Shown: piece by piece, positions 1 through 43,887 of the stretch
Layout: every line of letters begins with the position of its first letter
Position numbering within the stretch: the first letter of the stretch is position 1
Origin: a virus
DNA: 58,407 nt
Direction: 5' to 3' (one strand)
IMG/VR virus record: IMGVR_UViG_3300045988_099599
Made by a program: the position numbers and the translations under genes
Notes under the pieces: model-generated
The model's input: the letters and a program-made list of their open reading frames with translations, nothing else
Databases searched by the model: none
What the model was told of the DNA's origin: nothing

Positions 1-55
1 ATATTTATGGTTTTGAAGTCAGTGAAGGAATGGTATCCGATATCACAGATAAGCT
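1..55. repeat. Terminal overlap (identical to 58353-58407); marks a circular or circularly assembled molecule
   Basis: Compared by eye, nt 1-55 equal nt 58353-58407. The unique length is 58,352 bp. Confidence 0.95.
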
Positions 56-827
56 TCTTCCCAGAATAGAAGAATGGCAAACTCGCCCATTGTCAGCGGT
101 ATATCCAATCGTTTTTATTGATGCTGTACATTTTTCTGTGCGTGACGATGGTGTGATCAGAAAGCTTGCTGCATATGTCGTCCTTGGAATTAACGAAGAC
201 GGAATGAAAGAAGTATTAAGCATTGTTGTAGGTGAAAATGAAAGCAGCAAGTATTGGCTGTCAGTGCTGAATAGTCTGAAAAATCGAGGCGTTCAGGACA
301 TTCTTATTCTCTGCTCTGATGGACTGACAGGAATCAAGGATGCAATCTCCGCCGCATTTCCTGAAACGGAACAACAGCGCTGCATAGTGCATATGGTGAG
401 AAATACACTCAAATACGTTGCAAACAAGGATATGAAGTCTTTTGCTAAAGACTTAAAAACAATCTATACAGCTGCCGATGAAAAAGCTGCCAGAAAACAG
501 TTAAAGACCGTTACCGAAAAATGGTCGGGACAATATCCGAGTGCCATGAACCGCTGGCATGATAACTGGGACGCAATCTCCCCGATTTTTAAATTTTCCA
601 AAGAGGTTCGTACTGCGTTTTATACTACAAATGCCATTGAATCGTTGAATTCATGCTATCGCAGGCTAAACAAGCAGAGAAGCGTATTTCCGAGCTCACA
701 GGCACTGGTGAAAGCACTATACCTGGGGACTTTTGAAATAGCCAAAAAATGGACAATGCCAATCCGTAATTGGGGCAAAGTCCGTGGTGAACTCGAAGTC
801 ATGTACCCGGACAGAATGCAGATATAG
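1..827 (+). CDS. IS256-family (Mutator-type) transposase, C-terminal part (whole protein about 414 aa)
   Basis: The product has VYPIVFIDAVHFSVRDDG, LILCSDGLTGIKDAI, RCIVHMVRN and YTTNAIESLN, typical of Mutator/IS256 DDE transposases. The frame is open from nt 1. Confidence 0.9.
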   Translation, partial: IYGFEVSEGMVSDITDKLLPRIEEWQTRPLSAVYPIVFIDAVHFSVRDDGVIRKLAAYVVLGINEDGMKEVLSIVVGENESSKYWLSVLNSLKNRGVQDILILCSDGLTGIKDAISAAFPETEQQRCIVHMVRNTLKYVANKDMKSFAKDLKTIYTAADEKAARKQLKTVTEKWSGQYPSAMNRWHDNWDAISPIFKFSKEVRTAFYTTNAIESLNSCYRRLNKQRSVFPSSQALVKALYLGTFEIAKKWTMPIRNWGKVRGELEVMYPDRMQI

Positions 828-2856: not shown

Positions 2857-3009
2857 TTATTTTCCAAGTGACTCGCGGATTGCTTCAAGGTCGTCCACAG
2901 TGAGCACTGGATAATCTGCCGCAATATCCTCAAAAGGCTCTCCGTTTTTAAGACGGATTTTAAATGCTCTTACCATGATTTTTAATTTAAGTGTGTTCAA
3001 TGTTTTCAT
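2857..3009 (-). CDS. XkdX-like small tail-fibre-region protein (50 aa)
   Basis: Hand translation gives MKTLNTLKLKIMVRAFKIRLKNGEPFEDIAADYPVLTVDDLEAIRESLGK. Its ATG overlaps the upstream stop (TAATG). Size and position match XkdX-type genes. It is below the ORF-track cutoff. Confidence 0.45.
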   Translation of the reverse strand: MKTLNTLKLKIMVRAFKIRLKNGEPFEDIAADYPVLTVDDLEAIRESLGK

Positions 3010-3338
3010 TATACTTCTCCTCCAATCAATTCAGCCATCATTAAAATGATATCGTCTGTAGTTGCTTCTAGTGTGTCGATACGCTCTGTATCAGTTCTTT
3101 TAGGCTCATTTCCGTAATTGAGATATTTTTCTGGTGTTGCTTTTACGTCAGCTAAGTCTAGTGTTCCAGTGGGTTCTGAGATTTCTTTGTAAGCGTATTC
3201 ATAATAAATCCGTTCCTCTTCCTGCCCCTCGGGAATCTCTGTCACGATGTTCTCATTCAGACAGATATAGACATAATCCGTTCCATCAATCTGTCTAACA
3301 GTAACACTCTCTTGTGTAGTGTCGAATCTTGCTTTCAT
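3009..3338 (-). CDS. Hypothetical acidic protein downstream of the DGR RT (possibly XkdW-like, tail-fibre associated)
   Basis: 109-aa ORF with RBS AAAGGAG. It overlaps the RT 3' end by 44 nt. Confidence 0.6.
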   Translation of the reverse strand: MKARFDTTQESVTVRQIDGTDYVYICLNENIVTEIPEGQEEERIYYEYAYKEISEPTGTLDLADVKATPEKYLNYGNEPKRTDTERIDTLEATTDDIILMMAELIGGEV

Positions 3339-4611
3339 GAGATATCACTCCTTTACAAATTTGAATCGTTTTGTTCGCGTTGTATCTTCTTTTTATATTG
3401 TAGCTGTCCGTGTGGTCTAAGATGCCTTTGTATGACATGCACTTCCTTGCAAGCCATACTGGAATCTTCTTTCTCTGCTTTACAAGGGATTTTGCTTTCT
3501 TGTACGACCGCCTCACTCTTAAGAAAACTCTTCTTCTAATTGTTATATGCTGTCTGTATATGCGGACGCCCATAATATCAATGAAATGACCGTCATCTTT
3601 GCGTTTTGCGATTGTTGTATATACCATCCAACTTTCTTTGATTTTCAATCCAATCTCGTCTGCTTTCTGTATAATCAGTTTCATAGCTTTGTGAATGTCT
3701 TTTGCGTTCGTTCCAAGAATAAGAATATCGTCCATGAAGAAAAGTTGATGCTTGACGAGATTTACTCTTTCTATTGTTCCGTTTCTCTTCTTTCTGATAT
3801 GATACATATTCTCCGCTATTTCATGGTAGATTTGAGACAAGAACAAGTTACAAAGATACTGGCTTAAATACGAACCAATGCTCAATCCAGTGTCAAATGT
3901 CATGATTAACATCTCTATCAATTCGAGTAGCGGTTCATTCTTAATGTATTTCCTAAGAAATTCCATTAATTTGTTTCTGTCAATCGATGGATAGCATTTG
4001 CTTATATCACATTGACCAGCGTATCGGATACCTTTGTTTCTCATCCATCGTTTTATTGCTTTGATGCCGTAGGATTGACCTTTTCCACGTAGTGCCGCAC
4101 ATTGATATTCGCCAATTCGCTTGAGAAAGTCTTTCATGGCTTCTACTGCGATATAATCGTAGATTTGCTGTTTAATATTCTGTATTCCAATTCTTCGAAC
4201 TTTCTGACTGGAAGCGTCAATCTTTTCTCTGTACCATATTGGTTGAAAGTGAATATTGTCTTGAATGATTTCTTCACGTACTCCGTCAACCACTGTTTCA
4301 ACCATCGGTTTCATTCCATTTAATCCGAACTCATTGAACATTCCTTTAATAGTGTCTGTCGGAAGTCCAGTGTATTCAGAAAACATTTTCAATGAATCTC
4401 TTCTTTTGTACTTCTTTTTAAGGCATTTGTATACTGCCTTTTGAATCAGTTTTCTATCTGTTATGTCGACCGTTTTGCAATACGTCTTCATCGATTGTCT
4501 TTTTAAGGGCGTTCGGCTTGTACTACTAACCCCGACAGATAGGCGAACCCTATCCGTCCTTACTCCTTCCTTCAAAAGTTTCAGTAGGTCTATAAAAAGT
4601 ATTTCGGGCAT
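3295..4611 (-). CDS. Diversity-generating retroelement reverse transcriptase
   Basis: RT motifs are present: KVRRIGIQNIKQQIYDY, QCDISKCYPSID, GLSIGSYLSQYLCNLFL (DGR-type I/LGxxxSQ) and FFMDDILILG (YxDD box). It lies directly 3' of the TR. The start may instead be MKTYCK (ATG 4491). Confidence 0.9.
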   Translation of the reverse strand: MPEILFIDLLKLLKEGVRTDRVRLSVGVSSTSRTPLKRQSMKTYCKTVDITDRKLIQKAVYKCLKKKYKRRDSLKMFSEYTGLPTDTIKGMFNEFGLNGMKPMVETVVDGVREEIIQDNIHFQPIWYREKIDASSQKVRRIGIQNIKQQIYDYIAVEAMKDFLKRIGEYQCAALRGKGQSYGIKAIKRWMRNKGIRYAGQCDISKCYPSIDRNKLMEFLRKYIKNEPLLELIEMLIMTFDTGLSIGSYLSQYLCNLFLSQIYHEIAENMYHIRKKRNGTIERVNLVKHQLFFMDDILILGTNAKDIHKAMKLIIQKADEIGLKIKESWMVYTTIAKRKDDGHFIDIMGVRIYRQHITIRRRVFLRVRRSYKKAKSLVKQRKKIPVWLARKCMSYKGILDHTDSYNIKRRYNANKTIQICKGVISHESKIRHYTRECYC

Positions 4612-4694
4612 CTGCCCAAGAGCCTTTACAGGCTACACTCTTTACGAGTGCGAAATACGACGCAAGGATTTAGATATATATATTAGAAATTAAC

Positions 4695-4790
4695 AATTTC
4701 AGCCGAGGTAATTCCAATTCGTCCTGTCAAGCCTGTTCCTGCAATTCACGTACGCTGAGCCAGCATTCGACCCATCCCTGAGATTACCGC
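4695..4790 (-). repeat. DGR template repeat (TR), non-coding
   Basis: 96 nt align without gaps to 4880-4975. On the gene strand it carries AAT/AAC/AGG/TAC codons and an in-frame TGA. Confidence 0.9.
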
Positions 4791-4827
4791 GTGCGCCGTA
4801 AGTCCTTTTATTTTTGTCGGTCGTATT

Positions 4828-4856
4828 AGGGGCGATCCCCTCTTTCCAAAAGGAAA
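4828..4856 (-). other. Two small hairpins just 3' of the VR (candidate DGR target-recognition hairpin)
   Basis: AGGGG-CGAT-CCCCT at 4828-4841 and TTTCC-AAAA-GGAAA at 4843-4856, 24-52 nt beyond the VR end. Confidence 0.4.
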
Positions 4857-4877
4857 TTCACCCCCAACGACCTCTTC

Positions 4878-6509
4878 TTAATCGCAGCCGAGGGAATTCC
4901 AATTCGTCCAGCCAAGCCAGCCCCAGCAAGCCACGAACGCAGAGCCAGCAAGCGACCCAGCCCAGAGATCACCGCCTTGTAAATATTCTCGCGTTCCAGA
5001 TGTATTTTTACCGTCAGCGTATACCATATCTGCGAAGCCTTGTGAACTTGACGAACCTTTTGCAGACGGAAACCATGCGCCAGTATCAACATCTACAGAA
5101 ATATCGCCAACCCAAAAATCCGAACCGTTTCCGTCGGGATTTGCTGGAATTGTGCCGACACACGTATATGTGTTTCTAATCATTGTATCAGAAGAATTGT
5201 GTGGTACACCCTTTTGTGCAACATACACTTTTTTGCTGTAATCGCTTTGGAAGTCCATTACTGTATCAGATGCGACCATATATCCACCGACAGCGTATTC
5301 ACGACCTTGAACTCTGTACGGATGCTTGCCATCTGTATTAGAACCGAAAGAACCATCATGTCTGCCAATAACTTTATCAGTACTTCCCGACCACCAATGC
5401 ATTGAGGTAATCGTGATAGGAGCATTTACTGTATCAGATAATTTAATAGGAGTGGTATTAAATCCTGTTTTAATATCAAGATATACAGCTTTATTATTCT
5501 CATCGAGCGTTTCAATACGCAACACTTTTACATCATCTGCATACGCATGTATTGTATTAACTCCACGATCATTATTTACTGTATTTGTATCAGTTTTTAA
5601 TTCTCCATATCCAACTGATACATAAGAGCCAACAAGAATGTTCTGCGCCTGTGCGTTTGTAACCGGGAAATATGTATGCGCATCAGCAGATTCGATAGAA
5701 GCAGAGTATTGGAAACTGTATCCTGTACATCCCTGGAATAAACTCTGGCTATTCTTTGTAGCACCTTTGATAATGTTAAAAAGAATCTGGAATGTATTCC
5801 TTTCTGCACCAGCTCCCCAATGTCCTTTACCTTTTTTTTGATAATTAGTAATCATATTGTTATGACTCTGATTTCTTTCAGGTTTTAATCCAGGCTGACT
5901 TCTAAGTAATCCATCAGAAGCAACGCCTGATACATAAGCAGAACCAATACACCACGGAATAATTTTTCTGTCTGCACGCTTGCATTCTGTCCACGGTTTT
6001 AATTTATACTTTTCGTTTGGGGTGTCAGAAATCGTTACCAAATCGTACTCTGGATTTGATGCGTCCCAATTCCACCAAAAACTCATCTGCATAGCACCAA
6101 CATCAACGCTACCTGTTTCTTGATAAGTATCATCATATTCTGTAGCAATCGGATACGCCGTACCATCATCATAACGCTTGTAATTACAATGCACCCAGTC
6201 GAAAAGAGGGTGATTTCCATTTAGATAATCGTCCTTACCCTCGGTTGTATCAGTGGACGGAACAAATTCCAATCCAGCATTATCTAACAGTTTCTCTCCA
6301 CTAGATGTTGGATTAGTTGCGAATTTCCAGATTTTTGTCTGATACACTTTTCCAGTTCTACGGATATTATAAAAGCTTTCGATGGTCAATACGTGCGGAG
6401 TGTTGTTGCGAATGTCTTTCATTACACTCTTTAAATTATCTAAACCTTCCTCGAGCGAACCAATTGGTCCGAGAATATCATTCTCAAAATCTATAGTTTT
6501 CTGTGCCAT
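4878..6509 (-). CDS. DGR target protein: tail-fibre/receptor-binding protein with a C-terminal C-type-lectin-like variable region
   Basis: 543-aa ORF that is last in the tail-fibre block. Its C-terminus ...GGDLWAGSLAGSAFVACWGWLGWTNWNSLGCD is encoded by the VR. Confidence 0.85.
   Translation of the reverse strand: MAQKTIDFENDILGPIGSLEEGLDNLKSVMKDIRNNTPHVLTIESFYNIRRTGKVYQTKIWKFATNPTSSGEKLLDNAGLEFVPSTDTTEGKDDYLNGNHPLFDWVHCNYKRYDDGTAYPIATEYDDTYQETGSVDVGAMQMSFWWNWDASNPEYDLVTISDTPNEKYKLKPWTECKRADRKIIPWCIGSAYVSGVASDGLLRSQPGLKPERNQSHNNMITNYQKKGKGHWGAGAERNTFQILFNIIKGATKNSQSLFQGCTGYSFQYSASIESADAHTYFPVTNAQAQNILVGSYVSVGYGELKTDTNTVNNDRGVNTIHAYADDVKVLRIETLDENNKAVYLDIKTGFNTTPIKLSDTVNAPITITSMHWWSGSTDKVIGRHDGSFGSNTDGKHPYRVQGREYAVGGYMVASDTVMDFQSDYSKKVYVAQKGVPHNSSDTMIRNTYTCVGTIPANPDGNGSDFWVGDISVDVDTGAWFPSAKGSSSSQGFADMVYADGKNTSGTREYLQGGDLWAGSLAGSAFVACWGWLGWTNWNSLGCD
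4880..4975 (-). repeat. DGR variable repeat (VR), the last 32 codons of the target gene
   Basis: It differs from the TR at 18 positions. All 18 are plus-strand T in the TR, which is A on the transcribed strand. Confidence 0.9.
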
Positions 6510-6511
6510 AT

Positions 6512-7108
6512 CTACTCCCTCCCGTCATCATAAGTTACCATCAGACTGCCAGCTTCAGTGACGGTGAAAGTAACACCATTAAATTGTTTCTTCCCCTCTT
6601 CCACGGCAGCATTTACAGCTGACACTCCGGCTTTTTTCGCGGAATCAACAGCAGATACGGCCGCCGCAGCGGCATTATCAACAGCTGTTGTCCCGTCCGT
6701 CCCGGCTTTTTCAACTGCGGCAACCGCTTCCGTTTTCGTCTTTGTAATATCGGACAATGCTTCTATTTTGGTCTGTCCCACGGCCGATACTGCTTCTTCC
6801 TGGCTGGCACCGATAGCATTTAGCCCAGCAGTTTTCTTTTCTTCCATAGCGGTTTCGATGGCCGTAGTTGCTTCCTGCGTTTTTTCTTCAACGTGACTGT
6901 TGAACATTTCCACAACAGTGTCAACATGGCTTCTCGCTTCCACTACAGCCTTGCGGTCTTCCGCAACCGCATTTTTGTCAGCTGCTACCTGTTCTGCTTT
7001 TCCAGCGAATTCGGCCAGAAGTTTCCCGAAGTCTTCCCGTGTGCCTTTATAGCCCTGTTTTACAGCCTCTGCGTAAGCAGTAGCCGCTCCAAGATCTGTC
7101 GTAATCAT
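6512..7108 (-). CDS. Tail-fibre-associated Ala-rich coiled protein
   Basis: 198-aa ORF, tightly packed. The C-terminus is GVTFTVTEAGSLMVTYDDGRE. Confidence 0.6.
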   Translation of the reverse strand: MITTDLGAATAYAEAVKQGYKGTREDFGKLLAEFAGKAEQVAADKNAVAEDRKAVVEARSHVDTVVEMFNSHVEEKTQEATTAIETAMEEKKTAGLNAIGASQEEAVSAVGQTKIEALSDITKTKTEAVAAVEKAGTDGTTAVDNAAAAAVSAVDSAKKAGVSAVNAAVEEGKKQFNGVTFTVTEAGSLMVTYDDGRE

Positions 7109-7944
7109 TTCATCATCACCTCCAAATGTCCTTTTTCATTCAGTCGAAAATCCAGACTGTCTTTAATGTTTTCTGTCCGTTCGAGGATCAGATGTCCGTT
7201 TTCGTTGATTTCCATGCGGCAGTATCCGTTTTTTGTGGCAACCTGTTTGGCCGCTTCTGAATAATACATGGCATTGTCCTTATCACGATCCGGATAACCC
7301 ACATGGCCGTGCGCCCAGGATTCCGCTTCGTTCCTTGCATCCGTTGCTGTTCTCAGAACAGATTCGGTAGCCGTGTCGAATTCTGATTTCAGTTTTTCAA
7401 CGGCTTCTCTGTCGCTTTTTGCATTTTCAGCACTTTCCGATGCTTCCGAACTTGCCTTTTTGGCATCTGCAGCATATTGTTTCGCGTTTTTCTCGGCAGT
7501 TTCTGCACGGCTGGCCGCTGCATTTACTGCATCGACCGCTTCATCGAGTAGTTTTTTGTCATCCGGGTCCGTGCCGATGTCAGACGGTTTCGACCTGGTT
7601 TTCACTTGCAGAATTACCTTGTACACAGTATTTCCAGACGTTTCATCAGATACATAAATATACGCATAGATCATATAGTATTCTGTATTTACAGAAACGT
7701 GGCTGTTTTTTAACAATTCGTTCGGTATCTGCACTTCTAAGCATCCATCTGTAGTTTTTCCCACTCTTGTTTCCGTACTTCCTCTGGTATCCGTAAGTGA
7801 AAAGTCAACTGTCACATATTCTGGAAGTTCCAGATCGGATACCCTGAGTATCTGTCCGTAGTCATACTGATATAATCCAGATTTTCTGGCAGTTCGTTCC
7901 CGACCAAAATTTACATCTACGTATTTATGTTCATTTACCGTCAT
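7105..7944 (-). CDS. Tail-fibre/baseplate-associated structural protein
   Basis: 279-aa ORF with 4-nt overlaps to both neighbours and a central Ala/Glu-rich coiled segment. Confidence 0.6.
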   Translation of the reverse strand: MTVNEHKYVDVNFGRERTARKSGLYQYDYGQILRVSDLELPEYVTVDFSLTDTRGSTETRVGKTTDGCLEVQIPNELLKNSHVSVNTEYYMIYAYIYVSDETSGNTVYKVILQVKTRSKPSDIGTDPDDKKLLDEAVDAVNAAASRAETAEKNAKQYAADAKKASSEASESAENAKSDREAVEKLKSEFDTATESVLRTATDARNEAESWAHGHVGYPDRDKDNAMYYSEAAKQVATKNGYCRMEINENGHLILERTENIKDSLDFRLNEKGHLEVMMK

Positions 7945-8996: not shown

Positions 8997-11900
8997 CTAA
9001 CCGTTGCTCCATGATCCAGAAACTAAAATCCCGTTTTTAAATTGCATATGACAACCGTTTGAATATCTGCAGCTTCCGTCGCTATTCATGTTTAATATAT
9101 GTGTAAAGTTGATCGTTCCGTTGATTCCGCCGCCTTCAAACGACGGGTTTTTTAGTGTCCAGTTGTGCATATCAATATCGCATCCTGCGTTGAGCGCGCC
9201 GCCCGTCAGGTTAGCTATTGAATTTCTTGCGAATGTCCACCTAAGAGCGTACAATGATGTGCTTGATGTTTGAGCCGCCCATGCCATGTATTCTCCGGTA
9301 TAATCCAAATCGAAATTCAGACCGTATCTTCCGGAATATCCGCTGATCTCGTTTGTACCAATCATTCCTATATCATTATCGTTATATATAAGACATAAAG
9401 ATCCGTTACGCAAATATGTTTTCATTTTTCCGTTCCGGCTGTACAGGGTACCCATAATATTTGCATTCTGACAGGTCAATGTTCCGTCTTCCGTCATGCT
9501 GGAATAATCCGATGTCCAACTGATCTTAGATGCTTTTAGTCGGATAGAATCTGCTTTTTGCTCAATGATAGACTCTACGTCACTCTTGGAAACTTTCAGT
9601 ATTATCTTGTCAGCCTCCACCTTGATCGCGGCCCTGGCATAATCTGTAGCGGCCGCCGCCGCAATTGCCGCCACGTCAAGGCTTGCAGCTGCAAGCCCTT
9701 CTTTCAGCGATGCCAACGCACTATTGTAAGAAGCAACTTTATCGGAAACGTTCTTTTTTTCAGCATCCGTTATGGTTCTATCAGATATCGCAGAATTGAT
9801 TGCATTTTTCAGTGATGTGTACGTGTTTGTGTACGTGGACATTCTTAATTCCAGTACAGTTCTCGTTATAATCCTCGCTTTATAATGCCATAGCTTCTTC
9901 ATAGAGTTTTCATATGGATGAGAAGTTTGGATCATAGACGGAATTGTCGCTTCTATAACTTCGTAATTCGGAAGCGATGTTTCTTCTCCTTTAGTTGTTG
10001 CCGCTGTGTTTGTTCGCGTGATACTATCGATTGAAAATCCGTAATAGTTACAATTTGTTGAATCTGAATACCATTGAATGTAAATATCTGTAGACGGAAC
10101 GATATATGTGTTTCCTGCTATATCGGCGCCACTTACAGCATCCAATGCTTTGTAGATCTTCCCATCTTTTTGATAGTACAGCGACAGGTTATCGTACTTT
10201 TGCCCGTTCGAAGATGAAATTTCTGTTTTGCAGTTCTCGTTGAATTTTATGGAGAAATTATTTCCTGTTTCGGCTGATTTCCGAGATACTGAATCGATAA
10301 GAGCGTTGTATTGCTTAGTCACCGACTCGTTGTCTTTTTCGATCTCCAAAAGCGACCGCTCAATCACCTGGGCTTCTGATTCAGAGATAATGCCATCCCG
10401 AAAGGCTCCTTTAACTGTTTCTTGAAATTTTGAAAAATTCGTTTCTAACTCACTGGTTTTGTCCTCTACAATCTCAGTTACTGTTTTTCCTTCCACTTGA
10501 AAGGTATTTGCGTTGATGATAACTCTTCCGGTTTCTGTGTCGGCCTGGAATGTAATGTTTCCATCTGCGTCCTTAACTGTAAACGTTCCGGTGTTGATAT
10601 AATCTGCGTTAATTCCTATAGCGTACAGTATTCTTGTAAGAAAATCTCCATCAATCGTAAAGCCAAACGGATAAGTTTTTCCACCGTCCGTAGAGAATCC
10701 GACTGCATCACTCGTTATTTTGAAAACGTTTTTTGAGTCTTCCAGTGTTTTTTTATCGTGAACATACAGAATTGTGCTTCCGTCTTCCTGCTTCACTTCG
10801 GTAGGATACATACCAGATGCACTGTCCAACGCTTTGTTAAATTCCTCTACCGCTTTTTCTCTTTCTGTTTTCTCGCGTTGGAAATTTTTTCTGTTTTCAA
10901 CCTGTGCTTGAGAGAATACCGAATATTGTTTGGAGCTGTTTTTAGCTGCGCTTTTCGCCCCACACTGTACCGTATGGTACTTTCCAACTTGAAATGTACT
11001 GGAAGTAATGAAAGACTTGTAAGAAACACCTTTTCTGTCTTTTATGATGCATATATCTCCGGCTTCATATGTCGGATTATTCAGTGTACTTGCTGAGAAC
11101 GGTCGAAACCGCATACCTGTCACTTGTTCTCCAATCATAGCCGCTACAGTACTGGCTGTTCCTTTTTCAATCAGTTTGTTATCAGCAATCGCAATAACAT
11201 AACCTGTCTTTCCATACAAAGACGTGTCAGCTGCTTCCTCTTCGCTTTGATTCTCTTGATATGCCGTTACCTGTATTCCGGTAATAATTACATCTTCACT
11301 GTTCACGGTAACAGAACTGTTTGAAGCGATTACGTCAAAGTATTCTTCATTTACCGTATCTACTTCATAGTTTTTCAGATCATACCATCCACAGAACAGT
11401 TTTCCATCAGAATTACACCTTAAGAACTGACCTCCAAGTTGTGCCGTCCATGCGATTACCTGACGGAAAGTCAGCTTTTCATCAGACGGTCTGGTGTTTA
11501 CAATATAGCCTGAGTTTTTGAACGTCAGTGTTTCTAAGCTGACTCCGCATCTCTCACACGCATCTCTAAGGATCTGAGCGCGTGTCGCCGGGTAAATCAG
11601 CTTACTTTCTGAATAGTCCCTATCAAACAGAAGCATATTGTCTTCGCAGGTCAGTGTTATCAGAGAACTGTTCTGGTACGGTGAATTAACAACGGTTCCG
11701 GTAAACATTTTTACCTTTTCAACGATGGATCCGTTGACGATCGTTACTATTTCGTTTCCGGTGGAATCCAGAATATTTTTTCCTGTGGTATCCTGCAGAA
11801 CTCTATAGAGAATGGTGTTGTCTATGTTATACCCTATATAGATTACAATTTTTGCTTCGTCAAAATCATAATCTGTAAAATCATCGTACAGGTTATTCAA

Positions 11901-12110
11901 CGTCACGGTAGCTTTGTTAATAATCGCAGTTCCTATCTGAAATTCAGAAGTATCTGAAACCGCATCTTCGATTTTTATACCGGAATTCCAGATATTCTTA
12001 TTCGTCAGGTTGAGTACAGTTCCATCCTTTAAAGTAATATCCACCCACTCATAGTAATTTCTATTATCTCTTTCAATTTGATTTTTGAAATCAGATGTAA
12101 CTTTTCTCAT
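8997..12110 (-). CDS. Tail-tip protein of the prophage tail-endopeptidase / minor structural protein class (Tal-like)
   Basis: 1037 aa, lying after the Dit-like gene and TMP. The N-terminal third resembles siphovirus tail-endopeptidase proteins. Confidence 0.8.
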   Translation of the reverse strand: MRKVTSDFKNQIERDNRNYYEWVDITLKDGTVLNLTNKNIWNSGIKIEDAVSDTSEFQIGTAIINKATVTLNNLYDDFTDYDFDEAKIVIYIGYNIDNTILYRVLQDTTGKNILDSTGNEIVTIVNGSIVEKVKMFTGTVVNSPYQNSSLITLTCEDNMLLFDRDYSESKLIYPATRAQILRDACERCGVSLETLTFKNSGYIVNTRPSDEKLTFRQVIAWTAQLGGQFLRCNSDGKLFCGWYDLKNYEVDTVNEEYFDVIASNSSVTVNSEDVIITGIQVTAYQENQSEEEAADTSLYGKTGYVIAIADNKLIEKGTASTVAAMIGEQVTGMRFRPFSASTLNNPTYEAGDICIIKDRKGVSYKSFITSSTFQVGKYHTVQCGAKSAAKNSSKQYSVFSQAQVENRKNFQREKTEREKAVEEFNKALDSASGMYPTEVKQEDGSTILYVHDKKTLEDSKNVFKITSDAVGFSTDGGKTYPFGFTIDGDFLTRILYAIGINADYINTGTFTVKDADGNITFQADTETGRVIINANTFQVEGKTVTEIVEDKTSELETNFSKFQETVKGAFRDGIISESEAQVIERSLLEIEKDNESVTKQYNALIDSVSRKSAETGNNFSIKFNENCKTEISSSNGQKYDNLSLYYQKDGKIYKALDAVSGADIAGNTYIVPSTDIYIQWYSDSTNCNYYGFSIDSITRTNTAATTKGEETSLPNYEVIEATIPSMIQTSHPYENSMKKLWHYKARIITRTVLELRMSTYTNTYTSLKNAINSAISDRTITDAEKKNVSDKVASYNSALASLKEGLAAASLDVAAIAAAAATDYARAAIKVEADKIILKVSKSDVESIIEQKADSIRLKASKISWTSDYSSMTEDGTLTCQNANIMGTLYSRNGKMKTYLRNGSLCLIYNDNDIGMIGTNEISGYSGRYGLNFDLDYTGEYMAWAAQTSSTSLYALRWTFARNSIANLTGGALNAGCDIDMHNWTLKNPSFEGGGINGTINFTHILNMNSDGSCRYSNGCHMQFKNGILVSGSWSNG

Positions 12111-27852: not shown

Positions 27853-28254
27853 CTACTTTTCGTTCTTTCCAAGAACATTTCTTTCAATGCGGTCTTCTGT
27901 TCTACGATTCATCCACATGAGAGCTTCCTCAATATGAGTAAGTGCACAAGCATTTTCTCTTGATGAAAACGGTCCTGCCTGAAAAGCTTTTAAACGATCA
28001 CGGACAATTTCCAGTAAATCTGTGTCAATTACACCGTGAAGCGAATCTTTTTCTTTTCGTGGTCCACACTGCATCTGCAATGTAAGAAGTAGGTTCTCTG
28101 GCTCTGCTCTTAACGATGTATCATCATCTTCAAGCGTTGCTGTTCCAGCCTTGTACACACAATATAAGTGATTAGCACCACCTGGACCGATTTCATCTAC
28201 GGCAAATACATCATTTAATTTTTCTCTTTTCTGAATTGTTGATAACTGTTTCAT
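27853..28254 (-). CDS. Conserved phage protein of unknown function
   Basis: 133 aa. The C-terminal motif [30 protein letters not shown] recurs in phage proteins I have seen, but I cannot place the family. Confidence 0.55.
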
Positions 28255-43089: not shown

Positions 43090-43439
43090 TATTCTTCCTC
43101 ACTTTCTGGCGGTTCTGGTAAAGGCATCCAATATAGGACTTTTTCATAGCCCAGTTCTTCCATTGTTTCAAACTCAGAATCCACAAAGCCAAGTGTTACT
43201 GGATCGTATATATCTTTCCAGAAGCCAAAACCGTACTCTTCTTCGCACTGGCACATCATCGGCGGATCTTCCAAGTGGTTTTCCACTAAACACATAAAGA
43301 ACCTTCTGTCTATATCTTCCGGCATCCTCTCAGAACACGGGATCCAGCCGACCCCATGTTCTTTTTTATATTCCTCAACAGCCTCCCTCTTAAAATTTTC
43401 AATCAGTTCCCTGATACCGTCTGCGTTTTCTTTATTCAT
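43089..43439 (-). CDS. DUF551-like protein
   Basis: GWIPCSERMPED motif. Confidence 0.5.
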   Translation of the reverse strand: MNKENADGIRELIENFKREAVEEYKKEHGVGWIPCSERMPEDIDRRFFMCLVENHLEDPPMMCQCEEEYGFGFWKDIYDPVTLGFVDSEFETMEELGYEKVLYWMPLPEPPESEEE

Positions 43440-43887
43440 CCTGTGTATCCTCCTTATACGGTACCGGCAATTCCATCCATGCGGTAACTTCCATATATTT
43501 TGCGTTTGAAATCCCTATAGGTCCATACTCATAGGACTCCCAAACTGTTCTATCCGTGTATATGTCATGGATACACTTTGCTTTATCGATCAAATATCTG
43601 GATTTTCCGTTTCCGGTTCGCTTTATGGTTACCAGTACTTCTCTTGCGTTGTCTGGATGTCTGACACTAACGGGGATCCACCTACTGTCCACATTCGGTT
43701 CTTCCTTCCACTCATACAGGCTCTTAACGCAATCATCGCACAGGTCGAAGCCTTCATCTGTTCTTCCGTCTTTTGTCACTGTCTTGATTCCTCCAATGGT
43801 ATTTCCAAGAACCGAACCTTTCGATTCCATCACCACATTGTTCTCGTAGAACTTACCGCATCTGTCACACTTCTTCGCTTTACTCAT
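43432..43887 (-). CDS. Zinc-ribbon plus DUF551-like protein
   Basis: CDRCGK...CDDC at the N-terminus, then RWIPVSVRHPDN. Confidence 0.5.
   Translation of the reverse strand: MSKAKKCDRCGKFYENNVVMESKGSVLGNTIGGIKTVTKDGRTDEGFDLCDDCVKSLYEWKEEPNVDSRWIPVSVRHPDNAREVLVTIKRTGNGKSRYLIDKAKCIHDIYTDRTVWESYEYGPIGISNAKYMEVTAWMELPVPYKEDTQDE

Follow-up and report, generated by a model that had tools for sequence, protein, structure and literature searches.

The stretch analysed here (the window) is a viral DNA sequence of 58,407 nt, IMG/VR record IMGVR_UViG_3300045988_099599, and all coordinates below are window positions. It carries a diversity-generating retroelement (DGR), in which a target gene ending in a variable repeat (VR) is followed by a non-coding template repeat (TR), a structured spacer and a reverse transcriptase (RT) gene, with the cassette and its target all on the minus strand. 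The core features of the locus are as follows.

4878..6509, minus strand: DGR target gene, an open reading frame (ORF) of 543 aa; presumed receptor-binding or tail-fibre protein with the VR at its C-terminal end
4880..4975, minus strand: VR; diversified part 4885-4975, invariant boundary 4880-4893 consisting of CCTCGGCTG + CG + ATT
4695..4790, minus strand: TR; non-coding, outside any ORF, with an in-frame TGA
3295..4491, minus strand: DGR RT; 398 aa, isoelectric point (pI) 9.9, matching RVT_1 and phrog_1423, start set by relatives
3979-4011, 3859-3879 and 3727-3741, minus strand: RT motifs CDISKCYPSID, IGSYLSQ and FFMDD, respectively, read in the RT ORF

TR and VR form an ungapped direct repeat of 96 nt, 185 nt from start to start, with 18 mismatches. 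Every mismatch lies at a T on the plus strand of TR, that is, at an adenine of the coding minus strand; there are 25 such adenines in TR, and the chance that 18 of 18 mismatches would fall on 25 of 96 positions is 3.5e-14 (hypergeometric). The VR makes up the last 32 codons of the 543-aa target ORF, and TR translates as GGNLRDGSNAGSAYVNCRNRLDRTNWNYLG*N, the stop being a TGA at a codon that reads TGC in the VR. An earlier note, made from the letters of this DNA alone, had proposed the same two intervals, the ungapped alignment with 18 differences, their restriction to TR adenines, a VR encoding the last 32 residues of a 543-aa protein and the in-frame TGA, and recomputation returned each of these. 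The TR adenines are placed so as to change the protein without truncating it: 23 of the 25 sit at codon positions 1 or 2, in AAY, AGG, GAY and TAC codons, no stop codon can be reached by adenine substitution in the diversified part, and the reachable peptide variants number ~10^12.

The two 3′-most differences, at 4698 and 4699, behave differently from the rest. Here TR has AA (...GCTGAAATT) and VR has CG (...GCTGCGATT), and the counterpart in every VR examined is likewise CG, although the TRs of other lineages have AT or TA. Because CG is fixed in every VR and stands opposite T-containing TR bases elsewhere, these differences are not products of adenine mutagenesis; as judged from the aligned repeats, they mark a fixed VR/TR boundary resembling the IMH/IMH* (initiation of mutagenic homing) boundary. 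The earlier note's count of 18 substituted adenines among 25 includes these two boundary differences, and setting the boundary aside leaves 22 mutable adenines, of which 16 are diversified in this copy. We found no second VR in the window, the best other match agreeing at 33 of 69 non-A positions.

The RT ORF (3295-4611, minus strand) matches Pfam RVT_1 (6.6e-15) and PHROG 1423 'reverse transcriptase' (2e-58), and its best match among solved structures is the 328-aa RT of entries 8ub7-8ube (8ub7_A). Aligned to the annotated Brt of Bordetella phage BPP-1 (BLASTP, 25% identity over 239 aa, E 3e-15), CDISKCYPSID corresponds to SDFSKFFPSIDR of Brt (D138), IGSYLSQ to IGSLTSQ (I181, G182, Q187) and FMDD to YMDD (D215, D216), residues whose equivalents contact template, deoxynucleoside triphosphate and metal in the bRT structure (bioRxiv 10.1101/2023.10.23.563531). 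The protein thus carries both marks of a DGR-type RT, the motif 4 [ILV]GxxxSQ (IGSYLSQ) and the catalytic YxDD (FMDD). The earlier note had called it DGR-type from IGSYLSQ and FFMDD, and both motifs were located in a protein whose best alignment is to Bordetella bRT; it had also named disrupted catalytic residues beforehand as evidence to the contrary, and these are intact, as are residues linked to adenine mutagenesis, the equivalents of D138, I181/G182/Q187 and D215/D216 all being kept. The start of the gene needs revision. We place it at 4491 rather than at 4611, the start of the longer ORF, because the alignment of 65 related loci begins at Met 4491 and the ATG at 4611 lies in the loop of a hairpin (P4, below) and is absent in lineages with GGCGGTTGCC; the interval 4494-4697 is structured non-coding RNA.

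Variation was compared across related contigs, not reads from one sample. IMG/VR holds 77 target-related loci (identity 53-94%, mostly human gut), and 55 of the 65 in which an RT was found contain a VR/TR pair with mismatches all or nearly all at TR adenines. Across 15 near-identical gut-virome loci, mean pairwise identity was 0.31 at A-templated VR sites against 0.97 at other VR sites, with TR at 0.98 and the VR-TR spacer at 0.98; in a set of 14 close relatives, just 4 TR columns vary, against 23 of 26 TR-A columns in the VR. Loci with target proteins 88-94% identical each have their own, different VR. Rare non-A polymorphisms of TR (G>T in locus L009 and T>C in L010) reappear in the cognate VRs, as TR-to-VR information transfer predicts. 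With related contigs in place of the reads that the earlier note had envisaged, the VR polymorphism therefore lies at A-templated sites over a near-invariant TR, and its proposal of a DGR whose mutagenic retrohoming targets the C-terminus of a tail-region protein draws support from this variation, from the constancy of TR and from the RT type.

The same comparison suggests that the cassette moves. Loci L046-L049 and L062 have RTs ~94% identical to that of the window and a TR that is nearly unchanged, at a target identity of only ~54%, whereas L016-L031 share ~82% target identity and only ~48% RT identity; such uncoupling, seen at the level of sequence, suggests exchange of the VR-TR-RT module between different tail-fibre genes. 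In L015 (5560-5720) the TR-spacer-RT cassette is deleted, the junction joining the post-VR box AGGTCGTC to the last RT codons (..IMKICKKVVKEYDKKISLYGK) and leaving a VR-like, apparently frozen C-terminus followed by a homologue of a 109-aa ORF (3009-3338) that overlaps the RT end in the window. Since this deletion removes TR, spacer and RT together, the three form one insertable module. The 109-aa ORF, which we considered as an accessory gene, lies downstream of the RT in 64 of 64 loci, but it is acidic (pI 4.1), matches no family and stays in L015 without the cassette; because it follows directly after the target gene there, it belongs to the phage backbone, and we rejected it as an accessory.

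Around TR, ~300 nt appear, from their pattern of covariation, to form a structured RNA. High conservation of the 200 nt that separate TR from the RT start extends to loci with RT identities of only 48-97%; the helices, obtained with RNAalifold and refined by hand, are listed here.

4494..4697, minus strand: structured spacer RNA between TR and RT, with helices P0-P6
4792..4800, minus strand: P0 5′ strand, TACGGCGCA (RNA UACGGCGCA), immediately upstream of TR, pairing with 4656-4664
4664-4656, minus strand: P0 3′ strand, TGCGTCGTA (RNA UGCGUCGUA)
4697-4692, minus strand: P1 5′ strand, ATTGTT (AUUGUU), beginning exactly at the end of TR/VR homology
4499-4494, minus strand: P1 3′ strand, GACAAT (GACAAU), 2 nt before the RT AUG
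4651-4635, minus strand: P2, hairpin GCACUC/GAGUGU
within the spacer, minus strand: P3, hairpin
4618-4605, minus strand: P4, hairpin UGGGC-AGAU-GCCCG
4558-4534, minus strand: P5, 10 bp
4533-4503, minus strand: P6, closing the invariant loop GGGGTTAGTAG...CGAA (RNA GGGGUUAGUAG...CGAA)

P0 has compensatory changes in 8 of its 9 pairs, with 96.5% of cells paired. The sequence of P1 differs in every lineage, for example ATTGCTTC/GAAGCAAT, ATTGTATTT/AAATACAAT and ATTATAAA/TTTATAAT, with a pairing of 6-9 bp kept throughout. Taking all helices together, pairing holds in 95.9% of cells, and 34 of 45 pairs show double (compensatory) changes; sliding the partners by 1-3 columns lowers these figures to 35-45% of cells and 6-11 pairs, and none of 500 shuffles reached the observed pairing values. 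A further helix, P2a (GTATTT/AAATAC), was included at first and then dropped, with 89.5% of cells paired, one compensatory pair and an overlap with P0. No Rfam family matched at the DGR, either at the gathering threshold or at E<=10 over 4300-5100.

Covariation thus supports both an upstream/downstream-flank duplex (P0) and a duplex between the TR 3′ end and the spacer (P1). The BPP-1 RNA has two duplexes around TR: the 'cPRT Stop' duplex, which is upstream:spacer, and a template:primer duplex between the TR 3′ end and the spacer, from which spacer A56 primes cDNA synthesis (bioRxiv 10.1101/2023.10.23.563531). By analogy, P0 and P1 are candidate counterparts of the BPP-1 stop and template:primer duplexes.

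A second conserved element lies directly after the target gene and is kept in all lineages.

4829..4872, minus strand: post-stop conserved element, a box and two hairpins
4872-4856, minus strand: box, GGTCGTTGGGGGTGAAT; form across lineages AGGTCGT..GGGGGTGAAT
4856-4843, minus strand: hairpin 1, TTTCC-TTTT-GGAAA
4840-4829, minus strand: hairpin 2, GGGG-ATCG-CCCC

The two hairpins stand 8-50 nt after the stop codon, with stems of 4-5 bp in this lineage, and they covary: elsewhere the stems change sequence and stay complementary (TTCCC/GGGAA, CCCC/GGGG, GCGAAGC mini-hairpins, GAGGGGA/TCCCCTC). A GC-rich hairpin 4-34 bp after the VR is needed for efficient homing, with a 4-nt loop that follows GRNA (Guo et al. 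2011, PMC3240598), and the position and structural conservation of the hairpins described here fit that account, though their loop sequences do not. The element is a candidate target-recognition hairpin or cruciform. We found no T-run after these hairpins and no promoter-like site in the VR-TR gap, so read-through transcription from the target gene into TR and RT is plausible.

The accessory gene content differs between this lineage and its relatives. Where avd sits in BPP-1, between VR and TR, sister lineages on gut-phage contigs of 135-177 kb have a gene for a 169-aa RNase H (Pfam RNase_H, 5.9e-12; at 5654-6163 in L018, and present also in L001, L016-L031, L042, L045 and L053). The RTs of these cassettes are ~48-50% identical to the window RT, their spacer RNA is without the long P5 hairpin, and some (e.g. 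L016 and L017) contain an additional inserted ORF of 257 aa (L016 6472-7245, no Pfam match). A tblastn search found no RNase H homologue in the window. Wu et al. 2018 described no RNase H in DGR RTs, and RNase H falls outside their four accessory-gene classes (PMC5758913).

The target protein matches phrog_17147 (1.8e-77). Its gene sits between tail genes and the lysis module, with a tail protein (8997-12110, phrog_6616) and a weak tail-fibre match (7105-7944) on one side and an endolysin (1038-2594) on the other, and collagen-like N-termini are seen in relatives of the protein; this position and these N-termini point to a tail-fibre or receptor-binding role. Homologues number >3,300 in the protein collection, including Blautia wexlerae and Lachnospiraceae names, and the protein also matches a 176-kb faecal phage record. 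A genome-collection scan using the RT gave one Eubacteriales metagenome-assembled genome only, so the host assignment comes mainly from these protein names. The last ~180-200 aa constitute a modular C-terminal domain ending in the VR, and the C-terminal 200 aa recur, in 378 representative clusters, as the C-terminal part of proteins 195-1424 aa long.

The fold of this domain is less clear than its distribution. Neither the target protein nor 45 diverse homologues of the domain matched a Pfam family, and no PDB sequence matched at E<=10 with the single sequence or the 45-sequence profile; hhalign against Mtd, the BPP-1 target, gave a probability of 0.8%, that is, no detectable similarity. AlphaFold modelling of the full-length 543 aa from a shallow alignment (rows all >=78% identical) reached a predicted local distance difference test (pLDDT) score of 27. 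An AlphaFold2 model of the last 200 aa from a diverse alignment reached pLDDT 69.6 and a predicted TM-score (pTM) of 0.66, with a confident core (~residues 65-170 of the fragment) and a low-confidence VR segment (48-73). Foldseek of this model against PDB returned no solved structure (best E 0.88), and against BFVD it returned family members plus a weak match to a predicted viral protein annotated TvpA-like (E 7.7e-4, TM-score 0.48). In style, the VR scaffold GG.L..GS.AG....V.C....L....W..LGCD resembles the VRs of C-type lectin (CLec) variable proteins, a class with Mtd, TvpA and FGE-sulfatase/DUF1566 types. Unlike the Treponema denticola TvpA-type proteins, the target is without a match to any solved structure, and the VR part of its model has low confidence. 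The C-type-lectin-like assignment of the earlier note is therefore not established, and the model gives a weak pointer to the CLec variable-protein class.

Elsewhere in the window, an ORF at 30-827 (plus strand), beside the endolysin at the left edge, looks transposase-like (of the IS256 family by eye; no family search was made), and an ORF near the right edge (57166-57768, plus strand) is HTH_3 repressor-like. From these two ORFs, the phage may be temperate, or a prophage, with an insertion sequence at or near its end. A full-length ROOL RNA (29446-30023, minus strand; Rfam RF03087, 363.8 bits, E 1.6e-83) sits inside the phage genome in a cluster of five tRNA genes (29195-29270 and 30279-30904, minus strand). 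A 133-aa ORF (27853-28254, minus strand) contains an Acb2/Tad1 hairpin domain (PF24729, 33.6 bits, cutoff 27) and is, from this match, a candidate anti-CBASS/anti-Thoeris nucleotide sponge. Among other small ORFs, one has a strong Fer4_12/radical-SAM match (8.5e-46), another matches a Hol44-type holin family (1.5e-22) and two contain DUF551, one of them being 43432-43887.

These features can be assembled into a scheme of retrohoming. An RNA spanning at least 4800 to 4494 (minus strand) would be made, probably co-transcribed with the target gene. The P0 duplex would clamp the base of TR, and the TR 3′ end (ATTGTT) would pair with GACAAT, 2 nt upstream of the RT start codon, to form P1. If, like the TR:spacer duplex of Bordetella, P1 serves as the template:primer duplex, priming would occur in cis at this site and the RT would copy TR from its 3′ end, misincorporating opposite the 22 adenines at codon positions 1 and 2. 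The cDNA would then replace the VR, with its 3′ limit in the invariant GC-rich CCTCGGCTG, beside the two conserved hairpins that may guide it. With ~10^12 stop-free protein variants available, switching of receptor specificity would be possible, and tropism may be the trait under selection.

On this evidence, the window very probably holds a functional Avd-less DGR of a temperate Lachnospiraceae gut phage, diversifying the last ~30 residues of a tail or receptor-binding protein. The element resembles the BPP-1 DGR (mtd-avd-TR-brt) in several respects: in both, target, TR and RT follow one another on one strand, the VR occupies the 3′ end of a gene for a tail receptor-binding protein, mutagenesis acts specifically on adenines that stand at codon positions 1 and 2, the RTs are homologous with equivalent catalytic residues, a structured spacer separates TR from RT, and hairpins lie downstream of the VR. 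The spacer is longer here, at ~200 nt against 140 nt in BPP-1. Several observations weigh against this interpretation. This genome is available as a single copy, and its presumed activity is judged from the sequences of its relatives. The RT ATG of this lineage lacks a Shine-Dalgarno sequence ahead of it. The long-range duplexes P0 and P1 cross, forming a pseudoknot, unlike their nested order in BPP-1. At the TR end, a proximal hairpin (GAAATT/AATTTC) could compete with P1 for the same 5′ strand; some lineages (L018, L029) show co-variation in this hairpin, which is shorter and less consistent than P1. The loops of the post-VR hairpins, TTTT and ATCG, depart from the GRNA consensus (PMC3240598) that BPP-1 follows. 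TR/VR homology stops at the stop codon without the 35-bp IMH of BPP-1, no long or extended IMH/IMH* homology being found at TR/VR beyond the fixed 2-nt difference beside the GC-rich CCTCGGCTG. Finally, none of the 48 small ORFs of the window matched the 23S_rRNA_IVP/Avd Pfam families, and phmmer with BPP-1 Avd against all 372 six-frame window ORFs gave a best E of 1.7.

Avd, though essential in BPP-1, is not universal, being present in ~74% of DGRs. The VR-TR gap of only 89 nt, itself a departure from BPP-1, leaves no room for an avd gene between the repeats, and because BPP-1 depends on Avd, its biochemical mechanism cannot be carried over as it stands. Defining features of a DGR that are found here are the RT type, the A-only differences, the C-terminal VR, the hypervariability and the TR-flanking RNA.

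The apparent activity might be historical, the VR having once been diversified by a DGR that is now decayed or frozen in this genome. The single sequence of this genome and the lack of an obvious ribosome-binding site at the RT start are compatible with such decay, and L015 illustrates how loss of the cassette leaves a frozen VR. Against it, the RT ORF is intact with its catalytic motifs, the TR, spacer RNA and hairpins are under clear purifying and compensatory selection, and loci 88-94% identical in the target protein differ in VR, so that we regard a frozen element as improbable. It is far less credible still that the RT belongs to another kind of retroelement (a group II intron, a retron or a defence RT such as DRT/Abi) and that the repeat is an unrelated duplication. 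NCBIfam does return weak matches, all sub-threshold, to group II intron RT/maturase (53 bits, cutoff 300) and Drt3a (20 bits). But no Rfam intron family was found at the gathering threshold in the window or at E<=10 in 4300-5100, nor any other Rfam RNA family at the DGR, bRT is the nearest solved relative and the RT carries the SQ motif; moreover, duplication does not yield adenine-only mismatches, and RT, TR and VR occur together in 55 of the 65 RT-bearing loci.

The role of the RNA between TR and RT leaves more latitude. Rather than a priming scaffold, it could be mainly a translational operator or attenuator of the RT, with P4 and its T-run ending transcription and P1 occluding the start codon. 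P4 followed by AATACTTTTT (4604-4619, minus strand) scores as a terminator-like site, at which transcription into the RT gene might be attenuated, and 2 nt separate the P1 3′ strand from an ATG without a Shine-Dalgarno sequence. Yet P0 joins sequence upstream of TR to the spacer and P1 starts exactly at the end of TR/VR homology, both as expected of a reverse-transcription scaffold like that of BPP-1 (bioRxiv 10.1101/2023.10.23.563531), and downstream of the terminator-like site covariation persists in P5, P6 and the P1 3′ strand. Regulation of the RT as the main role is, on balance, unlikely, and it is in any case compatible with a priming scaffold, the two not being mutually exclusive.

The element is an accessory-free member of a known DGR class and belongs to a family that is very abundant in gut Lachnospiraceae phages. 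Its layout, a target-TR-RT core with no accessory gene, is the Architecture A of Wu et al. 2018 (PMC5758913), and by this layout we liken it to their avd-lacking Lineage 3; its VR could not be matched to the VR classes defined there (CLec1-3, Ig1-2). Accessory-free 'Architecture A' accounted for 75 of the 372 DGRs in that survey, which proposed Avd-independent retrohoming (PMC5758913). A broader reading joins Avd-independent reverse transcription, a pseudoknotted RNA (P0 crossing P1, with P2-P6) that takes over the positioning role of Avd, and RNase H as a fifth, undescribed accessory class; we offer this combination tentatively, as something less likely to hold than to fail. Were it true, the RNase H of the sister lineages might process the RNA-cDNA hybrid.

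Among natural systems of targeted protein hypermutation DGRs are the best known, and because they are common in gut phages, one more is not news in itself. The leads that go beyond the routine are the covariation-supported RNA of an Avd-less DGR and the RNase H gene in sister lineages. The cassette is compact, fitting a 90-nt VR, an 89-nt gap, TR, a 200-nt RNA and a 398-aa RT into ~1.7 kb, and a minimal Avd-free system of this kind could serve engineered mutagenesis. Because its RNA architecture supplies candidate stop and priming duplexes, the question raised by Wu et al. 2018, how Avd-less DGRs prime and confine reverse transcription, becomes directly testable.

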